IMG/VR virus record: IMGVR_UViG_3300049491_000357
Span: 22,839-86,838 of that record
Length of the DNA stretch: 64,000 bases
Strand: one strand, 5' to 3'
Source of the DNA: a virus
Shown in pieces: positions 33,730 through 64,000 of the stretch. The notes under the pieces were generated by a model. It was not told the DNA's origin. It saw nothing but the letters and a program-made list of their open reading frames with translations, and ran no database searches. The position numbers were made by a program, and so were the translations under genes. Position 1 is the stretch's first letter; each line of letters begins with the position of its first letter.

Positions 33730-36700
33730 TAATCTGTTCTTCATGGCAGCCATGTGCTCAACCACGACATTTTGAGCTGTGGCTTCGACGAACTGCTTAA
33801 GATCCCCCTTCAAGGACAACTCCACTCGCACCTGACCACCTCCGCCCCCTCCTCCTCCGGCGGGAACGATACGTTCCCCCTTGCCAATGGACGTAAGACC
33901 CTCCCCTGGGGCAGGACTGATCTTAGCCAAACCTCCAGCCACAGACGATACCATACCTCCAGCTGCGTTGGCTTTAATGCCATACTCATCCTCATGTTTG
34001 CCCGCATACTCCCCAGCAAACTTCATAGCAGACTTGGGATCACTGACCCCACCTTCAGCGAAGTCATCCTTCCACCCCTTCACCTTGTCTGAGAAGGCGA
34101 GCATGGCGAATTCAAAGAGAGCCACTCGAAGAGAGTTGAGGGTTGATTCCTCAATCATCTTCGCCATTTGATTCTCCATGAAGGACTTGTTCAGTTTGAT
34201 GCCCTTGTTCTTGAGGACGTTCTCAATCTCACCCAAAGTCCCCAGGGTTGCCTCCTGTGCTTCCACCCCAGTTTCCATGACTCCAGTCTGAGTTTCAGGA
34301 GCAGCGGTGCCTCCAAATGTGGCTTTGATGGCATCTTCGACATGAGTGTCGTGGGTGTATGCTGTAGAGTTTGTGGTTAGCGCCTTCCCAGCCTCTTCTG
34401 TGTTGGGGAGTGCCTTTGCAACACCATCTCCAACAGCGGCTGACTGTTCCTCTTTGGTGAGAGCAGAGGGGCCGCCCACTTTTGCTGTATCCCCCAATAG
34501 CTTAACAAGGTCTGTGGGCATCATTCCACCAAGAGCGGACTCACGCGCTTTGGCTCGATCACCCCCAAAGTCAGAATCAATGTCTCCCTCCCCATAACGA
34601 TCTTCAAGAGTCTTCTGAACCAATGCTTGTTTCTGATCTAGGGCGTCAGCTTCTTTCCTCAACGCATCGCTTTTGGCTTTAGCTCTAGCTGCTTCAGGCC
34701 CAGTAGCCCCATATGCCTCTCGATCAACATCCTCAGCCTCAGCTCGTTTGGATGCCCCAGCTTCCCCCTTCGCCATCTTAGATAGCTTCTCAACCTCCTT
34801 GAAAGCATCCGTTTGCTTCAGCGCTTTATTTTGATCCCGCCAATCCTTGTTATCTTTAACGGCAGCAAGGATTGCAGGATCTTTTGTCTTTTGAGCCTCC
34901 ATTTTTGTCTTAGAGGAAGAACTGGCCCCAGGCAATCCGGTAAGAGTTTCCCAGATACCAATGATCGCTTCGTAGAAGGTGTGCATCATCCAGTCGATGA
35001 ACACCTGAAGTTGCTCCATGATACTCTGGACCCGAGTGCCCATTCGCTTGTTAGCTTCCTCCTGGGCATCTTTCCCGTCGGCTGTATCTTTTGTGGCTTG
35101 GTCCATGGTGTCGTAGATCTTGGTCCAAGAAGCATCCTTCGCTTCTTGTGCCGACATCTTCCCCCGTTTGACCAACTCCTCTCGTTGCTCCGCAATCTGC
35201 TCTGCCATATTTTGGTATAGCTGACGCGTTTCATCATCTAGTCCAGCCAAGGAGTCACCGGCTATACTACCCAAATGTCCCTCATCGCTACCAAAACGTG
35301 TAGTTTCGGCATACTTGTGTTCAGCCGCAGCCACCACGCTAACTTTGGAGAGTGCTCTGGCATTTCCTACCAAACCCCCCTTAGCCATTCTCTTCTCGGC
35401 GTTCAGGCTGGAGACGGCCTCCTTCAGGGTGCCTACCTTTGACTTATCCCCTGACTCAGCGACCTTTTTGATCATATCTCGAACAGCGTCTTTACCCGCC
35501 GGGCCAGCTTCAAGAGCCTTCTTGACATCCTGGACAGTGCCCCCACCAGCATCTGCAATAGCCTTCGCGATGGAGCTGTTTTTTGATGCAATGTCCTCCG
35601 CAACAAGTTTGGCAGTCTTGGCAGGCCCTGCGAGTAGGGAGGACTTGACCTTGTCTTGGAAGCTAGCTCCCTTGTATGCATTCATAGCGGACTGCATGAA
35701 TTTCTGAGCATTTCGTGGGCTCATCACCTTACCAAGCTTACCCAAAAGCTTGACCGCATCTTCAAGACGAGTGTTGTATAGACTAAGGTCAGCGGACACT
35801 CCTCGGATCATGGCGTAAAACTTATTGCTGGCGATCCCAGAATCTTCAGCACTTCTCGTAATCATGCGAAACGAATCAACCGTCTGACCGAGACTTTGCC
35901 CCAGCTCAGTCATCATCTCAGCCTGGAAGCCCGTAACCTCCTGCAAAGAGATACCCATCGAGCGGGAGTATGCCACCGCTGCTTGAGTCACTGAGCCAAA
36001 ATCCTTAGAAAACGCAGCGGACTTCTGGTTTAGTTGCCCAAACTGCTGCTCCAACGCCGTAAGCTGCACACCTTCCGCCTGAAGACTAGAAAGCACTTCT
36101 TTATGAGTGTCCGCAGAGATCCCCCAATCCAAGTTATTGGACGCATTGTAAGCTGACTCACGGATGTTTCTCAGTGAGTCATCCATCTTACTCAAGCCTT
36201 CCTCAACATTACCCATCGATCCCGAAAACCACTGAGCTGTTCCAGCAGAAGCCAAGATGTCCTTGTTGAACTCTTTGACCATGGCCTCGGCGTCAACGAA
36301 CATCTTCACGAGCCCGAAGATCGAACCCCCCAAAGTGCCCAGAAGTGGCCCGAGTTTGGATACGGTTGAAATGACCGGCCCCATCTTGCCTGCGATTGCC
36401 CCAAGCCCCTTAAGGGCTGCCCCCATCGCTGCTTCAGGTCCCCCACCCTTTGCTTGAAGTGCAGCACCCTTGGCGGACAACGACCCACCAACCTTGCTCA
36501 GCTTCCCACCAAGGTGTCCCCCGGCTGCCTTGAGGCCCCTGCCAGCAAGCTTAGCAAAGCTCTTCCCCGCCCCTTCAACATCCTTGTGCAACAAGGCTGA
36601 AAGCGGTTCAGCCAGCTCCTTACCAGCCTCAAGAGCGGCCTTCGTGAGTTCATTGCCACTGAACTCGAACTTCAGGTCATTGACCTTGTCGGAGAGGTCT

Positions 36701-46511: not shown

Positions 46512-46754
46512 CTATAGGAGAAAAGCAAAAAAGCTACTTGCTAGGAGCCAATACCCCTTCATCAATGAGTCTCCCCAGCAAGCTTTTGTGAGTGCTTCTC
46601 GTCGATTTGCCTCACAAGCCTCGGAACGAATTCGAGTCCCTGGGAATTGGCCACGATACGACTCGGCCGTGACTCCATGCACCGCCTTGAGATGGCGGGC
46701 CAGAGTCACGGCCGAGTGTTCGCACAGAAGACATAGAACGTGGTCTTCGGGCAT
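46512..46754 (-). CDS. Small MucR/C2H2-like zinc-finger protein, possibly truncated
   Basis: CLLC...LARHLKAVHGVTAESYRGQFP. Confidence 0.6.
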   Translation of the reverse strand: MPEDHVLCLLCEHSAVTLARHLKAVHGVTAESYRGQFPGTRIRSEACEANRREALTKACWGDSLMKGYWLLASSFFAFLL

Positions 46755-46816
46755 CTAAGTCCGAAGCTAGCCTTGGACTATGTCTGTCAGTCCTTTATTC
46801 TTATTTCTGCCTGCCC

Positions 46817-49800
46817 TAAGATTCTTGCCCTGAGGTTGAAAGTCAGAATGATGTACAAAAGTGGGAAGATTGGCTGGTAGTACGCCTCAAACCTCATGAC
46901 CGTGGGGTCATCAGGGTCGATCGAGGATGTGATACCCGTGAAGGCCCCAACGATCTCCGCCTGAAGCAGTCCCTTGAAGAGGGTCGTCATCGTGACGTTA
47001 ACCTCGTTCGTTCGGCTAGCCAAGAACTTCGTCCCAATGAAGGCATCAAGGACAATACGGCTCTGCTGCTGGACGAAGTCAGCGATCTGCGTGACTGTTG
47101 GAAGTCGCGTCAGAACGTTGCTCATGTTGGTGGTGAGACCCTGTCGAACCCGGATGATGGGGTCAAGGTCCTCAAGCAGGGTGATACCTGCCACCGCCGT
47201 CTGGTTTGCCTCAACAGGGTCGAGGATGCGTGGGATCCGAGTGAATCCAACGATGTTACGCCGCGTGTATGGGGTTGCCACGTCCACGGCTGGCGAGACC
47301 ACAGCTCCTGACATCGCCGCAGCGAAGAAGGTGCCGTCGACAAGCTGTTCGAAGTTCTGACCCAATTCGTCAGTCAAAGTGATGACCGCCGAATCCGGGT
47401 AGAACGCTACCATACGATTCGAGTTGAGAGCCCGTGCGATAGCCTGAGCACTCAAAGGGGTCGTCCCAGAGGCGAACCCAATGAAGCCCATACGTTCTGC
47501 TTGAGCCCGAATCGTGCTCTGGGTCTCGACGTGCTGTGTGAGGTACGAGTACACCGCAGTCGAGGTTGCCAGAGGCACCAAGAGGTCAGGCTTGATGTTG
47601 CCCGGCAGCGGAGTGGCCAGCCCATCGATTGCCGCGATGAAGCTCTGGTCACTCGCTTGGTTCGTGTTCGGAACCTTGAGGACCTGCTTCACCCCAACGA
47701 GAAGGGCTCCGTTGAGGATCGCAAGGTACGCACCCAACGTTGCACGGTTTTCGCCGGAGGCTTTCCCAAAGGTCGCTTCGATCGTCTTGAGCTGACGGTA
47801 GAGGCGGGTCGAAAAGTCCTGCTTCAAGTACAGGTAACTGATGAAGTAGAAGTCACCGACCTTGGGTTCAACCCCACCTGGGTTGAACGTCTGGAGTGAA
47901 GCGGTGTCATTCACCGCAACCCCAACCGTGTTGTACACGAGGGTCTCCAAACCTGGAACCGCGTAGAACGGTCGGCTTGGATCCACCATGAAGGTCGGCG
48001 AGACCGTCATGGTGAACGAGCCACCATTCGTGTAGAGACCCGTTGAGGCAGGGAGCACCGTAAACCGGAGGCCCGTGACTGCATCGGTGTACGTCTGCCC
48101 AGGGATACCCGTTCCCGCCGAACCCGAGGGGTTGTTCGACGAGACAGTGTAGATCTGCTGAGCATCTTCCCCGTTATCACCATCCGTACCAGGAGTGATC
48201 TTCGTTCCCGTGGTCACGTTGAAGGCAGAGTTTGCTGCATTCAAGAAGGCAACCGAGGAGGTCGTGAGACCTACTGTGATCGACTCAAACGTGATGTAGG
48301 TCGCGCCATCGAGGGTGGTTGCGTACGCAAACCCATCCACTTGGAAGCCAACCGTGTCCATCAGGACATCAACGACTTCTTGGGGGTTCACGAGAGTCTG
48401 CGACGCAGAGTCATTTTGGTTGAAACCAAGGGTGGCATTTGCGTTGCCATCCAAGATAACCAAACTGCTGGTTGCATCATTGACCGTCGAGAGGAGACGG
48501 AGGTGGTCGAGATTCAGCAGAGTACCTGCTGATGCAACACCCGGGGTCACCGCGTTGACGGCAGCAGCCACAGCCGCTGTGGTTACAGCCACACCAGCAG
48601 GCAATGTGGCTGCGTAGTCTGTCCCGTTCACCCTGTACTTGAAGGTGTCGTTGAGGCCCGTCGTGATGTTGAACGGACCAGCGATTGACCCAAGCAGGGT
48701 GGCGGCCTTGTTGATTGCACCCGTGGTTCCTGCTGAGCCCTGGAAGGCTGTGAAGCCCAAGACCTGCTCAACATTACCCGACTCAATGCGGACAGTTGAA
48801 ACCACATCCAGACCACCAGGGAGAGCCCCAGGGGTCGTCGTGCTCTTGATGATGAACACGATGTCGCCCGTGAGGGGGCCAATCTGGAGGTACGAGGCAA
48901 CAACCGAACCAACCGCAACGTTGATGTCGCTGACGATTTGGGCCGGTGTGCGGTTACCCGCAGTCAGGGCAACCGGATAGACTGTCCCATCAACACTGAC
49001 ATTCAACGTACTCAGAGCGGGGATCGTGATCTTCCCCGTGTCGATACCCGTCTGGATCGGCACAACGTGCCCACCAATCAGGTAGGCGGGAGCCGCCGTC
49101 GCGAGGTTGGTTGTGTAGGTGACCCCGTTGAGCTGCGTTGTCCAGGTTGCCGAGGTTGGGCTGAAGAACGAGTAGGGACCCTGACCCTTGATGGTGTAAG
49201 CTGCGTTTTTCGCAACATCCATCGAGAAGAGGACCGTAACTGTCTCAGAAACCGGGGTCCCAGCACCCGTGTGGAATGCGTCGGGGATCTGCTCAACACC
49301 ACGAGGCCACTGCACAATCTGAGGCAGACCCGTCTTCGACCCAAATCGGGTCTGAAGGAGGTTCGCGTTTTGCGTCGTGGAGAAGACCGTGTACTGTCCA
49401 GCCCCCACAGGTCCAGGCACCGTGCAGGTGAGGAGGTAGGTGTCGTCAACGATCCGGTTGTAGTAGAACGTTGCAAACGCGAACCAATCGGGCGGGACGG
49501 GGTCCTTGAGGGTGACAAGACGATTCACACCGTCAACCGAGATCACCGTTGCAGCTGGTCGATTCAGTGCGTCTCGGAGGTTGCGGCCAACACGAACCAC
49601 CACCAGATCAGGGCGATTCGTAACAACGTCCTGCTTGCCGTTGGTGATCGAGTTGTAGAGCGGTAGCCCCAACGTCGTATCACGCCCGTTACCCGTCGTA
49701 GGCACTTCGGGCAAGTAGAACTGCGTGGTCGAAACGACAGCAGGGATCGTCGTGTTATTGACGAACCGATCACACTCCCCAAGGTACAGTTTGTCATCGC

Positions 49801-55488: not shown

Positions 55489-55977
55489 TCATTTCCCTGT
55501 AAGTGTTTTTGCAATCTCCCGACGTAGCAGATCAGGAAGTGTCTTCTTAGCCCATGCCTTAGTCTCTCGTCGAGCCAATTCCACAAAATTAGATGGCTTC
55601 CTACCGGGATGGATCCACTTACCATCAGCCATCGACTTTGCAGTAGCCGATCGGAAGATCAACTTCCCCGACTCCGTGATGATAGGGATAGGAGCCTTGG
55701 CTCGTTTGAGCCAGAGCATTTGCCGGGACTTTTGCCCCTCAACCATGGGACGCCACGCAGGGTGCAAAACCGTCAGCAAGATAGACGATTTCTTGACCTC
55801 AATCTTCATCGCCTTCGAAAAGGCCCTCTTGGCATCATTTGAGAACCCTGTCTGAGAGAGTTGAATTCGAAGACGCCTAAGAAATTGTCGTTCAACCTTC
55901 TTCAGAACGGTTGCGACATCCCCCTTCAGTTCTCCTGTGAGGGGCTTCTTGTATATCGCTTTGACGCCAGACTTCAT
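55489..55977 (-). CDS. Basic neck/tail-completion protein (HK97 gp10-like)
   Basis: 162 aa; KWIHPGRKPSNFVE; neck-gene context. Confidence 0.55.
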   Translation of the reverse strand: MKSGVKAIYKKPLTGELKGDVATVLKKVERQFLRRLRIQLSQTGFSNDAKRAFSKAMKIEVKKSSILLTVLHPAWRPMVEGQKSRQMLWLKRAKAPIPIITESGKLIFRSATAKSMADGKWIHPGRKPSNFVELARRETKAWAKKTLPDLLRREIAKTLTGK

Positions 55978-57326
55978 AAGTAAGTCGTATTTTCCCAGGT
56001 GATCGTACGACCTCTCAACTCACGCTCGTCTGGGATATTGGGCTTCTCCGTGATTGGCGTCGGCCCATTATTGGGGAACTCAGGAAGGATTCTCCCAGCC
56101 GCCACCCGAAGAGGATCCCCCATGGGGACCTTCAATCGCACGTCCTGTTCATCGATGTGCCCGATATTGAAGTGCTGTTGAAGGACCATGCCTCGTGAGG
56201 ATGGGAATCTAACAGCACCCACAGAGTATCGTTCACCGTTGAGCTTCACCAAGAAGTCGCGTTGAGACAAGATGGGGGTTGGTCCCGTCCACACCTCGTA
56301 GGTATGTTCGACGGTTCGTCCCTTGTCTTTCTGCGCAATCCTACGCTCAGCATCATCAGGGGCGATGATGGCATCGTAGGGGCCCTCATACCCCCCAACG
56401 ATTGCAGTGCCGAAACAGATGAGGCAGTCGTTTTGAGGCTGCTTGTGGTACGAGTCCCCCACGCACGGACAGTCAATACCCACGTTTTTACGCAAGAAAA
56501 AGCGTACTCGCTCTCCCCCCTGCTCCAGGATCCAACGGTTCCGACGAACGGCTTCCCGCCACTGCCAATCAAGCTTCTCGACCTCAAAGCTTGACACTGC
56601 CACAGCCCGCTCAAGTGGAGTCTCCACCAAATCCGCAGCAGTGCAGCTACAGGGATCACACCCAGCAGGCAAACCCACCGTGGTGACTCGGTAGAAGACC
56701 CTCTGCATGAGGTCTGTCTTGAGGAGAGACTTCATCCTCCGGTAAGAGCAAGTGACTTTGAAACCAGGTTCAGGGGTCACCGCAGGATCAAGGTTTTGAA
56801 GCGTGACGTTGTTGTAATGCGTCACATCAATCTCGACTTCCCCCGAGAAGCCATCAACCGACTTGATGCGGGCTAGTTGATCTCCAACAAATACCTGCAC
56901 ATCGGAAGGTTCATCCGCGTAGGTACCTTGAGACCCAGACTTGACGATGGGCCCATTGCGAACTTGGAAAACGAAGCGGGGCCAGTAGTTCTGGACAGAG
57001 TTCACCCCCTCAATACGAAATTGATCCGTGACATCCTCAGTCACGAACTCAATGTCTGTCCGATCTTTCCAGTATGTCGTCTGGACAAGGAAGTCAGTCA
57101 GACGGGTAAACGGCCCGTACTCCGAGTCAAAGCTCCGATAGATGTTGACACCCAGGACACGAAACCGGCTATTCAAAGCCAGGATGCTGGGTTCATCCCA
57201 TTGGAGATCAAACGACCCTGGTTGCCACCCACTCGTCAAGAACAAGTTGAGGGGGGCAACAGGCAGAGCTACCCTCGTCAGCTCTAGATCCGAGGGTACC
57301 CTGTCTCGGTTTGAGGCGTAAGACAT
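55977..57326 (-). CDS. Neck/head-closure protein with FN3-like N-terminus and zinc finger (ends at TTA)
   Basis: GGERVRFFLRK...CPC...CLICFGT..GGY.GP; ends WENTTY then TTA overlapping next ATG (TTATG). Confidence 0.7.
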
Positions 57327-60212: not shown

Positions 60213-61070
60213 TTAGCAGTCCCATCCAAACTTATGCTTGCGTTTCGGGTCACAGGGAGTCCTCATCGCTGCATCCAAGACACGGAAGTACTCGGTATAG
60301 GTCTCGACCCCACAGCCAGGCGATTTCTCCCAAGACCAAACGATCGCCCAGTTACCTGGCTGACCGCACTCCCCAGCCACCCCTGTCGCATAGAAGCACC
60401 CATCAGACGTCATACCAGGAGTTCTACTTTCCGCCCCTCGAAGCTGCTGATACCCGCCAGGCAACACCTGGTAAATGGCGAAAGAGATACACGAAGGGAT
60501 GCTGGAAGGGCAAAGAACAAGGCCCCCAGCTCCAAGTGTCTGCATGTACGAGAACGTCTGCTGAGGGCGTGTGGGACAACAGATGGGGCGAGGTACGCAA
60601 ATCAGCTCCAGGTTCCCTACAAGGGAACCAACCCCATTGATTGGATTAGGGCCATTCCAAACCAGTTGCCCCTGCCCGATGGTTGCCCCACCCATCAAAT
60701 GTACAATGACCGCAGAAGCACTTGGTGTGCTGGAACCTGTGGTCGTACCTGCCAGCAAGACCTGCCCAATGCTGAGCTGCCCCGACCCATAGGCAGTCCC
60801 AGAGCACAGTATGGTGGTGTAGGTAGATACAACAACAGCCGCCCCGAACGCTTCCTGAGAAGTAATGCCGGTAGGGGCAAGTACGGTTGCTACGAAAGGA
60901 GCCCCAAACGCCTCTTCACTGGGGATACTCGTTGGAGCTACCGTGATGATGCTCGTGTTGAGCACCGTGGCTGCCCCGAACGCTTCCTCCGAAGCAATAC
61001 CGGAGACCCCAAGGATCAAGACCTCCAGGGGAGTGCCAAATGCTTCAGCGGAGGGGATCCAAGTAGCCAT
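60213..61070 (-). CDS. Structural protein with SEEAFG repeats and Cys-rich Ig-like domain
   Basis: 285 aa; four IPSxEAFG-type repeats; C-terminal domain resembles N-terminus of 59304-60203. Confidence 0.65.
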   Translation of the reverse strand: MATWIPSAEAFGTPLEVLILGVSGIASEEAFGAATVLNTSIITVAPTSIPSEEAFGAPFVATVLAPTGITSQEAFGAAVVVSTYTTILCSGTAYGSGQLSIGQVLLAGTTTGSSTPSASAVIVHLMGGATIGQGQLVWNGPNPINGVGSLVGNLELICVPRPICCPTRPQQTFSYMQTLGAGGLVLCPSSIPSCISFAIYQVLPGGYQQLRGAESRTPGMTSDGCFYATGVAGECGQPGNWAIVWSWEKSPGCGVETYTEYFRVLDAAMRTPCDPKRKHKFGWDC

Positions 61071-61080
61071 AAATGATCTC

Positions 61081-62472
61081 TAATGGTTGGTCCACAACAA
61101 AGCTTTGCACAGGTACTCCAAACACCTCTTCGGACGGGACACCAGGAGGGCTTATGACGGAGGACGTCAAGACAAACTCCTGTACAGGTGTTCCCATTGC
61201 TTCTGCCGTTGGGATGTACGGAGGGTTCAAGTACAGGACAAATGTAACGAACCCAAATCCTTCCTCACTTGGGATACCTGTGGGGAAGATATCATGCGAA
61301 ACGATGATGTTGAACGTGATCGACGGAGCCGCTGCAAGGGTCAACCTTGCATTCAAGTCAGCCTGAGCCGACGAATTCAGTTGCGCACTGGACGAAAGAG
61401 ATGTCGTCGGATTAAACGTCGTACTCGGACTGAAACTCAAGCTTGACTGAGCTGGGTACGTTACGGTACCCGCCGCATTTAGCTGAGTTGCTCCAACCCA
61501 CGAAGCTCCCGAGTTGAAGGTGGAAGACAGGTCAATTGATAGCCCCACAGATGCAGTGAACCCAGCACTTTGACCAAATGTCGTAGACCCTAGAGCGTCG
61601 ACCACATTGGAGCCCACATGGCTCGAAGTTGCTGTGAGGTTGGTAGCCCCCACAGCATCCAAGACACTAGACACCGAAAGCCCTGTGTTCGTTGCGGCAC
61701 TGAGGGACCCTACAAATGCCGCCTCACAGGTACTCGTGTGCCCGGCCGAAGCCCCCACGCTAAAGGAGGCTGGAATGTCCATTACCGCGTAGGTGGACCA
61801 CCCAGCTACTGCCGCAAAGGCATTTTGAACACTATAGTCTGTTGAAACACTTTCTGTCTGAGAAGCTGTGCTTTGGGTAGTGATGTCCCCCACAGCATCC
61901 AAGTTGCCTGTTTCTGAGACATCCGCTGTCTGAGACAGTGCAAGATCTGGGTACCCGTCAATCGATCCTGAACTCGTGATCTGAGGGAACGTTCCAAAAG
62001 TAAGCGTTGAGCTGTACGTATCTGGGACATTGTACAGCCGAACGTCTGCAACATTCGGGTCCGGGGGGACTCGAAGCCAGACGTCGAATCGTGTGGAGTA
62101 TCGATCCGACACGAAAATCACAGACGTGAGCGTTAGCTTAGGGGCCGCCGAAACGACAATCGCATTGACCAGGCCGATTGTCGGAGTAAGGGCGAGGACT
62201 GGGGACGAAACAGCAGTGATCCCAGGTGCAACTGGGGGGACTCCAATCAGGACGTCATTAGGCCCAATCGTTGGGCTGGTGACGAACGTTGTAGTGCGGG
62301 GAGCCAGTGTTGGGGTAGCTGGGACCCCAATGAAGTTCGTGATGGTCGCAGCAACGACCACAGAAATGATGGGGGAGAGAATAGACGTGACCCCAGTTTC
62401 GACGCTAGGGGCTCTCACCCTAACGTCCGCCGGTTCAATCTCTCCGCTGAAGAGTCGGACATCAGCCGACAT
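61081..62472 (-). CDS. Ser/Thr/Ala-rich fibre/decoration protein (ends at TTA)
   Basis: Ends VVDQP then TTA 61081-61083, then GAGATCATTT and ATG 61070. Confidence 0.7.
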
Positions 62473-62485
62473 GATCTAACCCCTT

Positions 62486-62944
62486 CTAAGTAGGGGAGAT
62501 CACAAGAGAACTCCCAACAATAGTTGGATCTGGCTGCTGATCCGTGACACGAACATAGTAGGGGCCGTTAGAGGGCACTACAAACAGGTAGTTGCCCCCC
62601 AGATCCGAAACCGTGCTCTGCACATAGGCATTGGATCCCTGTAGGAACAAGTCTACCTGACAGTTCCCGAGAGGCACCCCCGCATTATCTCGGGTCACCC
62701 CGATGACCTGCCAGAACACTTGAGGTTTGGGGGACCTGAACTGTGGATAGGGGCCATCATTCGTAACCCCCCACCCCTTGAGAGCACCTGTTGCACGAAG
62801 AGCACTATTGCCCACAGGATTTGCGGAGGGCCCCTGTGCACCCCCGTACTGCAAGTTGCCTTGAGGAGCCCCAGGGGCACCAAGTCCACCCCCACCAAAG
62901 TGAGGGGAACGTCCACCAATCCCTGAGGTCCAAAAGGTAGGCAT
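62486..62944 (-). CDS. Structural protein with carboxypeptidase-regulatory-like domain
   Basis: IGVTRDNAGVPLGNCQVDLF...STVSDLGGNYLF. Confidence 0.65.
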   Translation of the reverse strand: MPTFWTSGIGGRSPHFGGGGLGAPGAPQGNLQYGGAQGPSANPVGNSALRATGALKGWGVTNDGPYPQFRSPKPQVFWQVIGVTRDNAGVPLGNCQVDLFLQGSNAYVQSTVSDLGGNYLFVVPSNGPYYVRVTDQQPDPTIVGSSLVISPT

Positions 62945-62974
62945 CAGCTAAGTCCCATCTGAGGAAACTGCCTG

Positions 62975-63535
62975 TAAATTGAGCGATTCCACCATGTATT
63001 GGTGCACAGTGAGCGAGCCCGTGGCCACCGTCTGCGTAAAGAACAGGTCGAGGGTGTTCGCCGCCGTGGAGTCGAAGCCTGTACCGACGGCAGGAGCCGC
63101 GTTCCAAGGTAGGATGGCCGACACGACACCCTTTGGTGCAGTCGCAGGCACACCAAGGATGTCTTCACAGGTCCAAGTGCCCTGCCCAAAAAGCGTAGCC
63201 GCAACACCAGAACCAATCGAACGACAGGTCAGCAGGAGGTCCAACTTCCAACCAACGTTGGTATGGGCTGCCACCGTATCAAGCAGGATTGCCTGAGAGT
63301 CAAAGGCAACAACAGCACCCACACGGACGTCGAATCGGGCAGTTCCAGGGGTCGTGATAACGCTGCTGATACGACCAGAAGCCGTGATGCGAAGCATGCG
63401 GCCTACATAGAAGTAGTTGTTGGGGAGCGTGATCTTCGCTGCCGTTGGGATCGCGGTTGCTGCTGCCGCTGCCGTGAGGGTAGGGCCGTCAGTTGTCGAG
63501 TTGACGAGAGTTTCCTGCCAGGTCTGAAGGGACAT
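62975..63535 (-). CDS. Beta-rich structural protein (ends at TTA)
   Basis: Own GGAG SD and ATG 63535 (MSLQTWQE); ends HQYMVESLN then TTA 62975-62977. Confidence 0.7.
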
Positions 63536-63547
63536 TTGAATTCTCCG

Positions 63548-63955
63548 TAAGGGGATCGAGATCACGAGGGAAGGACAGCTTGCTGTTACACCAGCAGCGA
63601 AAGCCGTGGTACCAACGGTTGCATCACAACCTTGGTCGATGGTGCCTACTGTACCATCATGTACAGGAGTCTCATCAGATTTCAAGAGGCGATACCACCT
63701 AACGTCAACGGTGTTGAGGATGACTGCGGAACTGATTGCATTGGCCGTCTTTGTGCCGCTGATTGCCGCCGCAAAAGCCACAGGACTCAGATTCAACCGA
63801 ACAGCTTTGGTCTGGTCCGTCACCACCACGTCAGGACTCGCGGGCTGACCGGATCCACCACCATAGAAGTCCATGAAGCCTCCACCCAGGACGTCGAGGG
63901 CTGCATCAAGGGCTGCATTCTTAGCAACAGCAGAGTAAGTCGGATTTCGAGCCAT
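63548..63955 (-). CDS. Small structural protein (ends at TTA)
   Basis: MARNPTYS..AKNAALD; ends SLVISIP then TTA 63548-63550; the standard code fuses it to the next gene. Confidence 0.7.
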
Positions 63956-64000
63956 CAGCTTTGCACAGCGGTCACAGTCACATTCAAGGTGTCCCCGGAC
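63955..64000 (-). CDS. 3' end of a fibre/collar-like protein (5' partial)
   Basis: ...SGDTLNVTVTAVQS*; TGATG overlap; resembles the C-terminus of 8564-9094 (NDTLSVTYT). Confidence 0.55.
   Translation of the reverse strand, partial: SGDTLNVTVTAVQS

Follow-up and report, generated by a model that had tools for sequence, protein, structure and literature searches.

The 335-aa open reading frame (ORF) that translation table 11 places at 62948..63955 is probably an artefact of the standard code, covering two adjacent virion genes that are each ended at an in-frame TTA. The window, by which we mean the whole 64,000-nt stretch of viral DNA that was analysed, is the last 64 kb of an 86,838-bp linear IMG/VR record, the completeness of which is estimated by CheckV at about 18%. 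The contig has a G+C content of 54.4%, and its long ORFs are nearly all encoded by the minus strand. The features of the focal region, with the proposed gene boundaries, are as follows.

62948..63955, minus strand: ORF of 335 aa under table 11, translated with the standard code
63551..63955, minus strand: putative gene 1, encoding a 135-aa virion protein (MARNP...LVISIP), homologue of phrog_3758 and 9RKV chain A
63548..63550, minus strand: proposed terminator of gene 1, an in-frame TTA directly after the conserved ISIP (TAG in relatives)
63536..63547, minus strand: 12-nt spacer, CGGAGAATTCAA, with a Shine-Dalgarno-like GGAG separated by 7 nt from the gene 2 start
62978..63535, minus strand: putative gene 2, encoding a 186-aa all-beta (jelly-roll-like) virion protein (MSLQTWQETL...MVESLN)
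62975..62977, minus strand: proposed terminator of gene 2, an in-frame TTA directly after ESLN (TGA or TTA in relatives)
62945..62974, minus strand: 30-nt spacer, read under table 11 as QAVSSDGT and TAG, then CTG before the next start
62486..62944, minus strand: downstream gene of 152 aa (MPTFWTSG...), terminated by TAG, with orthologues in the related contigs L004, L081, L082, L083 and L086

The minus strand reads ...ATC CCC TTA CGG AGA ATT CAA ATG TCC CTT CAG... across the junction of the two proposed genes. The 335-aa ORF contains in-frame TTAs at 63550..63548 (codon 136) and 62977..62975 (codon 327), and each of them is the codon directly after a C-terminus defined by homologues. The first TTA is followed by GGAG (63546..63543), 7 nt, and an ATG in the same frame at 63535..63533. 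Behind it there are 199 codons without a standard stop, and since the next in-frame one is the TAG at 62950..62948, this TTA is not backed up by any standard stop within gene 2. The second TTA is preceded by GAA TCG CTC AAT, encoding ESLN, and nine codons read as LQAVSSDGT then lead up to the TAG. When TTA is translated as Leu with table 11, the result is the junction SIPLRRIQMS and the tail ESLNLQAVSSDGT; when TTA is taken as a stop, the result is two ORFs of 135 aa (63548..63955) and 186 aa (62975..63535). The original prediction had described a TTA at 63548 followed by GGAG and an in-frame ATG at 63535, with no canonical backup stop, and a second gene closing with ESLN-TTA, and all of these elements are present as described, the latter at 62977..62975.

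For gene 1, the phrog_3758 profile (annotated as 'virion structural protein') was matched with an E value of 1.4e-13 over profile positions 5-137 of 140. All eight homologues of the N half were 134-139 aa in size, and a search for a longer one among longer proteins gave none. The C-terminal ...SIP fell at the same aligned column in six of these eight homologues, one residue earlier in P0156 and two residues later in P0160. The AlphaFold model of gene 1 (pLDDT 81.5) matched 9rkv_A in Foldseek with an E value of 5.9e-8, a TM score of 0.76 and 25% identity, and a profile search reached the same chain with an E value of 1.5e-10. The entry 9RKV is the tail-fibre complex of Agrobacterium phage 7-7-1, in which chain A is a 141-aa 'Structural protein' present in 4 chains. 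The paper on phage 7-7-1 describes small homodimeric 'garland' proteins (gp014) that surround the fibres (PMC12796354), and from the small size and the 4 chains we infer that chain A is gp014. Gene 1 is thus related to a small structural protein of the tail-fibre/baseplate complex of phage 7-7-1, and like 9RKV chain A it would encode a stand-alone protein of about 140 aa beside fibre genes. Neither a scan of IMG/VR for N-half relatives with the queries P0001 and the pair alignment A3 nor a tblastn search of the 335-aa ORF against the phage collection gave a match, and Pfam and NCBIfam held nothing for the N half or the C half.

When the 335-aa ORF was searched against 1.84 billion representative proteins, there were 1119 matches at E<=1e-3. 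Among the 150 of them that were listed, 149 covered the C half only and one (P0016, 136 aa) covered the N half only, and no protein among these 150 joined the N-half and C-half families. Residue 1 of the match aligned with query residue 141, the ATG at 63535, in 45 of the 149 listed C-half matches, 28 of the 149 carried other N-terminal parts of more than 30 residues, and the alignments of these 149 never went beyond query residue 330. When 19 full-length homologues were aligned, all of them ended at an N matched to N186, and the 9-residue tail was found only in the protein of the window. Consistent with this C-terminus, a standard stop lay directly at the end of the family in 24 of the 25 IMG/VR relatives inspected, with 3 extra residues in the other. 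The model of gene 2 (pLDDT 93.4) was all-beta with its last strand at 174-184, and the models of both genes finish in a strand at the proposed C-terminus. The homologues of the two halves are therefore separate proteins of the sizes that had been predicted (about 135 and 186 aa), and full-length fusions with a conserved linker in standard-code homologues, which would have spoken for one protein, were not seen among the 150 listed matches.

Six metagenome contigs with N-half proteins 87-92% identical to that of the window were used as close relatives. Gene 1 ended with ...LVISIP TAG in all six, the TAG overlapping the GGAG (TAGGAG), and the gene beginning with MSLQTWQETL started 10 or 11 nt after the TAG, in a different frame, again in six of six. 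Neither the sequence of the spacer after gene 1 nor its length of 4 codons was conserved in the relatives, and because the relatives are out of frame and lack this spacer, the in-frame layout in the window looks incidental. In IMG/VR, an N-half homologue lay upstream in 2 of 80 loci, one in frame and the other not, both ending with TAA. The original prediction had also proposed a codon-controlled fusion switch at this junction; with the in-frame layout and the spacer not conserved, such a switch is unsupported, while a read-through fusion at trace level may be made at the gene 1/gene 2 junction.

At the end of gene 2, ...ESLN was followed by TGA in L083, L086 and L004, and by TTA CCG ATG in L081 (2480-2500) and L082, with no standard stop between the genes in the latter two; L084 and L085 stop short of the end of gene 2 and do not enter this comparison. 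As ESLN TTA CCG ATG is in frame, table 11 fuses gene 2 of L081 and L082 with the next gene, giving 348 and 351 codons. The spacer after the second TTA, 30 nt in the window, is 7 nt in L083, L086 and L004 and 3 nt in L081 and L082. Elsewhere in the window, the TTA at 61081-61083 that ends a 463-aa fibre-like gene is TAG in L004 and L083, and L004 shares with the window the 'TAC TTA TG' at 55977-55979, whose TTA overlaps the next ATG, and has no TGA behind it. The contigs L081-L086 are independent assemblies that may share the sampling campaign of the window, and they are perhaps not independent habitats. Taken together with the separate homologues, the TAG and TGA of relatives at these positions bear out the two TTA-terminated genes, of about 135 and 186 aa, that the original prediction had put forward. 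At the level of the sequence, these comparisons establish the gene boundaries, the equivalence of TTA and stop codons at orthologous positions, and the absence of TTA within genes.

The putative use of TTA as a stop is confined to a subclade, because TTA occurs inside genes in L100 (52% G+C, helicase 50% identical) and in L001 (C half 82% identical). L100 was the only relative, a distant one, obtained with the helicase query and served as the standard-code control. In L001, the N-half homologue was only 40% identical compared with 82% for the C half, which suggests, from these identities, a mosaic exchange of the gene 1/gene 2 module.

Across the minus-strand ORFs of at least 200 codons in the window, TTA accounted for 15 of 20,073 codons, compared with 152 for CTA and 392 for TTG, and in the other two frames of the same ORFs TTA occurred 178 and 85 times, a difference larger than expected by chance. 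The whole contig had 20 in-frame TTAs among the 26,486 codons of 42 long ORFs, and 8 of the 20 lay in the last 15 codons of an ORF (binomial P 1e-8). The share in the last 15 codons was about 3% for the comparison codons (CTA 6/186, TTG 15/498, CTT 19/597), and 25 of 792 TTAs lay there in the pooled relatives (80 loci). The remaining 12 TTAs of the contig comprised 3 immediately before the next start (the focal one, 33732 and one outside the window), 1 behind such a site, and 8 upstream of plausible starts; the latter fall inside or just after the preceding gene, and their placement on the 5ʹ side depends on our choice of start codons. At 33732, 5 nt separate the TTA from an ATG, and gene calling with table 11 would produce an overlap of 175 nt there; at several junctions, 3-14 nt lie between the TTA and the following start. 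By our reading of the start sites, no gene of the contig has an interior TTA.

Low use of TTA is not unusual in itself, and several relatives with 51-57% G+C have 0.8-1 in-frame TTA per 1000 codons. An enrichment within the last 15 codons was likewise seen for ATA (7/38) and AGA (8/104), in most cases with no TTA ahead of them, so the end-enrichment statistic for TTA overstates the case. The stronger support for TTA as a candidate stop comes from the stops of orthologues and the absence of interior TTA, above the end enrichment. Rare codons concentrate at the 3ʹ ends of genes in general, perhaps via overlap with the ribosome-binding site of the next gene.

We consider it likely that TTA ends translation here. 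Translation of gene 1 and gene 2 would each stop at UUA, and gene 2 would be initiated independently from its own GGAG and ATG. In this phage and the phages closest to it, UUA would then join UGA (the main stop), UAA and UAG as a fourth codon for termination. By analogy with organelles, UUA might be read by a class-I release factor of the RF2 type with widened specificity, supplied by the host or by the unseen part of the phage genome, and the translating cell would have no tRNA that reads UUA efficiently. The ending of 33 of the 42 long ORFs with TGA would fit an RF2-type reader of UUA. The 86.8-kb contig, about 18% of the genome by the CheckV estimate, contained no tRNA or tmRNA genes, and no RF-1 domain (PF00472) was found in it even at E<=1.

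Three further candidates were tried and rejected. For a frameshift to an out-of-frame stop after the first TTA, there was no +1 stop in the stretch read and no -1 stop for about 20 codons. An intergenic motif that includes TTA was set aside, as the contexts had the TTA alone in common. An origin from T plus TAG does not fit the TTAC present at both focal sites.

The source of the window is a metagenome assembly, and an error of sequencing or assembly, or population noise, with true codons of TAA, TAG or TGA, would account for TTA at gene ends. The Logan contigs of run X1 (freshwater sediment), a separate assembly, had 0 differences from the window, and records 7 and 8 covered both focal TTAs; X1 may be the source sample of the window, and the agreement is in that case not fully independent. 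Runs X2 and X3 from another study held identical fragments, the listed pieces of which lay elsewhere than the focal TTAs, and run X4 (activated sludge) held a relative about 90% alike, the rows shown lacking letters at the TTA sites. No RNA runs were listed among the sequencing runs that hold the sequence. As L081, L082 and L004 also have TTA at the ends of orthologous genes, as errors confined to stop codons would have no cause known to us, and as long ORFs run unbroken for up to 2145 codons, indicating that random errors are rare, we regard an artefact as extremely improbable. A real 335-aa fusion, with TTA as ordinary Leu, the TAG of gene 1 lost and gene 2 extended by a 9-residue tail after loss of its stop, would be in keeping with the open ORF under table 11, in which the two genes are in frame. 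The C-half domain is joined to other N-terminal parts in P0145, P0007 and P0006, and a single T insertion would make TAG into TTA-G at 61083. But such a history needs independent stop losses in about 11 genes, all to a codon that is otherwise never intragenic, while gene 2 retains its own GGAG and ATG. No homologue among the matches listed joins both families, the fusion is impossible in the six close relatives, where the TAG intervenes and the frame differs, and neither the spacer nor the tail is conserved. We therefore hold a real fusion to be very unlikely.

Alternatively, UUA might be an unassigned or 'hungry' codon in the host, at which ribosomes stall, drop off or are released by rescue, or at which a stall regulates the next start; termination would then be conditional on the supply of tRNA-Leu(UAA), as with bldA-dependent UUA in Streptomyces. 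A study of Streptomyces describes a very rare UUA, a tRNA that is limiting early, and a UUA sensor in a phage (PMC10732093). The TTA-to-start distances of 3-14 nt at several junctions, such as the 5 nt at 33732, and the lack of an RF gene in the 86.8-kb contig would agree with this explanation, which we nevertheless consider improbable. The TTAs replace the stops of orthologues codon for codon and are not placed ahead of a retained stop, and 199 codons without a standard stop follow the first TTA. Proteins rescued by tmRNA are tagged for degradation, which would be the fate of these virion proteins. Streptomyces genomes have a G+C content of about 72% and carry TTA at interior Leu positions of their genes, whereas the G+C content here is 54% and no interior TTA occurs. 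It is also possible, but unlikely, that UUA is a conditional terminator, a stop once a phage factor, encoded on the roughly 80% of the genome outside the contig, is made or the host tRNA-Leu(UAA) is removed, and otherwise, early or in an unsuitable host, a codon through which structural genes yield fusions like the 335-aa product. If this were true, the code change would be a timing device or a host-range lock, and it would likewise be the first sense-to-stop reassignment known outside organelles.

The preferred reading, termination at TTA, has counterparts in organelles. NCBI table 23 is a code with UUA as a termination codon, and in the literature searched, which included few subscription journals, a change of UUA to a stop was described for organelles only, namely mitochondria and plastids. 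According to one report, UUA termination occurs in labyrinthulean (Thraustochytrium) mitochondria and, with UUA/UCA, in peDinoflagellate plastids, and UUA/UUG termination occurs in mitochondria of Marsupiomonadales and Pseudoscourfieldia; the plastid case is called the first sense-to-stop change outside mitochondria (PMC12574857). The same report describes changes in organelle release factors, including a Ser204 substitution in mtRF2a/pRF2 and changes in mtRF1a, and an RF2-type reader is proposed there (PMC12574857). As in these organelle codes, a Leu codon is gone from gene interiors in the window and is placed at the stops of homologues, beside the standard stops. Unlike them, the present case concerns a tailed phage of a bacterium, with no RF gene on a contig of about 18% of the genome.

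Stop-codon recoding in phages, for example in crAss-like and huge phages, consists of TAG or TGA being read as an amino acid. The lineage studied here resembles such phages in being mis-called by table 11 and in having standard-code relatives alongside, but the direction is the opposite, from a sense codon to a stop. Because of this direction, standard gene callers fuse or lengthen genes and do not split them. In Streptomyces, an upstream ORF of adpA contains an in-frame UUA that commonly precedes the main start by 5 nt, and the terminase of phage Hau3 involves UUA-triggered bypassing (PMC10732093). The window resembles these bldA and Hau3 cases in that UUA is nearly absent, is confined to special sites, one of them separated by 5 nt from a start codon, and is exploited by a phage. 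However, UUA is read as Leu or serves as an intragenic take-off site in Streptomyces and Hau3, whereas here it replaces stops between genes and is never intragenic.

The gene 1/gene 2 junction strengthens the case for TTA as an additional stop signal in this group of phages, and it provides a compact test case, in which two proteins (ending ...LVISIP and ...MVESLN) are expected versus one 335-aa fusion. If the reading is true, a sense codon has been turned into a stop codon in a bacterial virus. Standard gene callers would then fuse or lengthen about 1 gene in 7 in such phages, and alternative-code screens limited to stop-to-sense or sense-to-sense changes would miss them. The question raised is which host or phage release factor reads UUA.

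With regard to the function of gene 2, the protein atlas contained only viral hypothetical clusters of 177-186 aa, and a profile search of the PDB gave nothing. Foldseek and VIA returned only generic beta-sandwich, lectin and CBM rows in the background range (TM at most 0.34, Z at most 8.1), and the likeness of gene 2 to lectin, CBM or TNF-like sandwiches is thus at background level only. The gene 2 domain is the very C-terminal domain of longer fibre-like proteins (P0145, P0007, P0006 and P0105), and in P0145 (801 aa) it occupies residues 629-800. Its C-terminal place in fibre-like proteins as long as 801 aa points to a possible role as fibre tip or receptor-binding module, which this phage would encode as a gene of its own. 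A profile scan of genome contigs with the reduced alignment A2 yielded 13 loci, spread over MAG bins from at least nine phyla/classes; we take these loci to be mis-binned phage contigs, and they are accordingly uninformative on the host.

Several features of the sequencing runs were observed beside the focal sites. The X1 Logan contigs are interrupted from 63522 to 63535, where gene 2 begins, and many other contigs pile up near 63046 on a conserved FTQTVATGS stretch (depth 135); gene 2 is probably common to several related phages in the X1 sample. The X4 relative loses similarity at 46533-46817, where 60 other letters replace 283, and its similarity resumes at the TTA that ends a 1411-aa gene. 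Because of this resumption at the TTA, the 10 codons between that TTA and the following TGA look non-coding.

When TTA is taken as a stop in 60900..64000, the genes are 135, 186, 152, 463 and 285 aa, separated by gaps of 12, 30, 13 and 10 nt. A comparison of 10 large neighbouring ORFs with PHROGs yielded no named function. Few of the contig proteins had named relatives, which included a UvrD-type helicase, a minor tail protein family and a DNA-binding family; the tail family was that of the 285-aa gene, which follows the 463-aa gene and matches phrog_13352 (minor tail protein). Within 60213-62472, several copies of an IPSEEAFG-like motif occur, both C-terminally in the 463-aa product and N-terminally in the 285-aa one.
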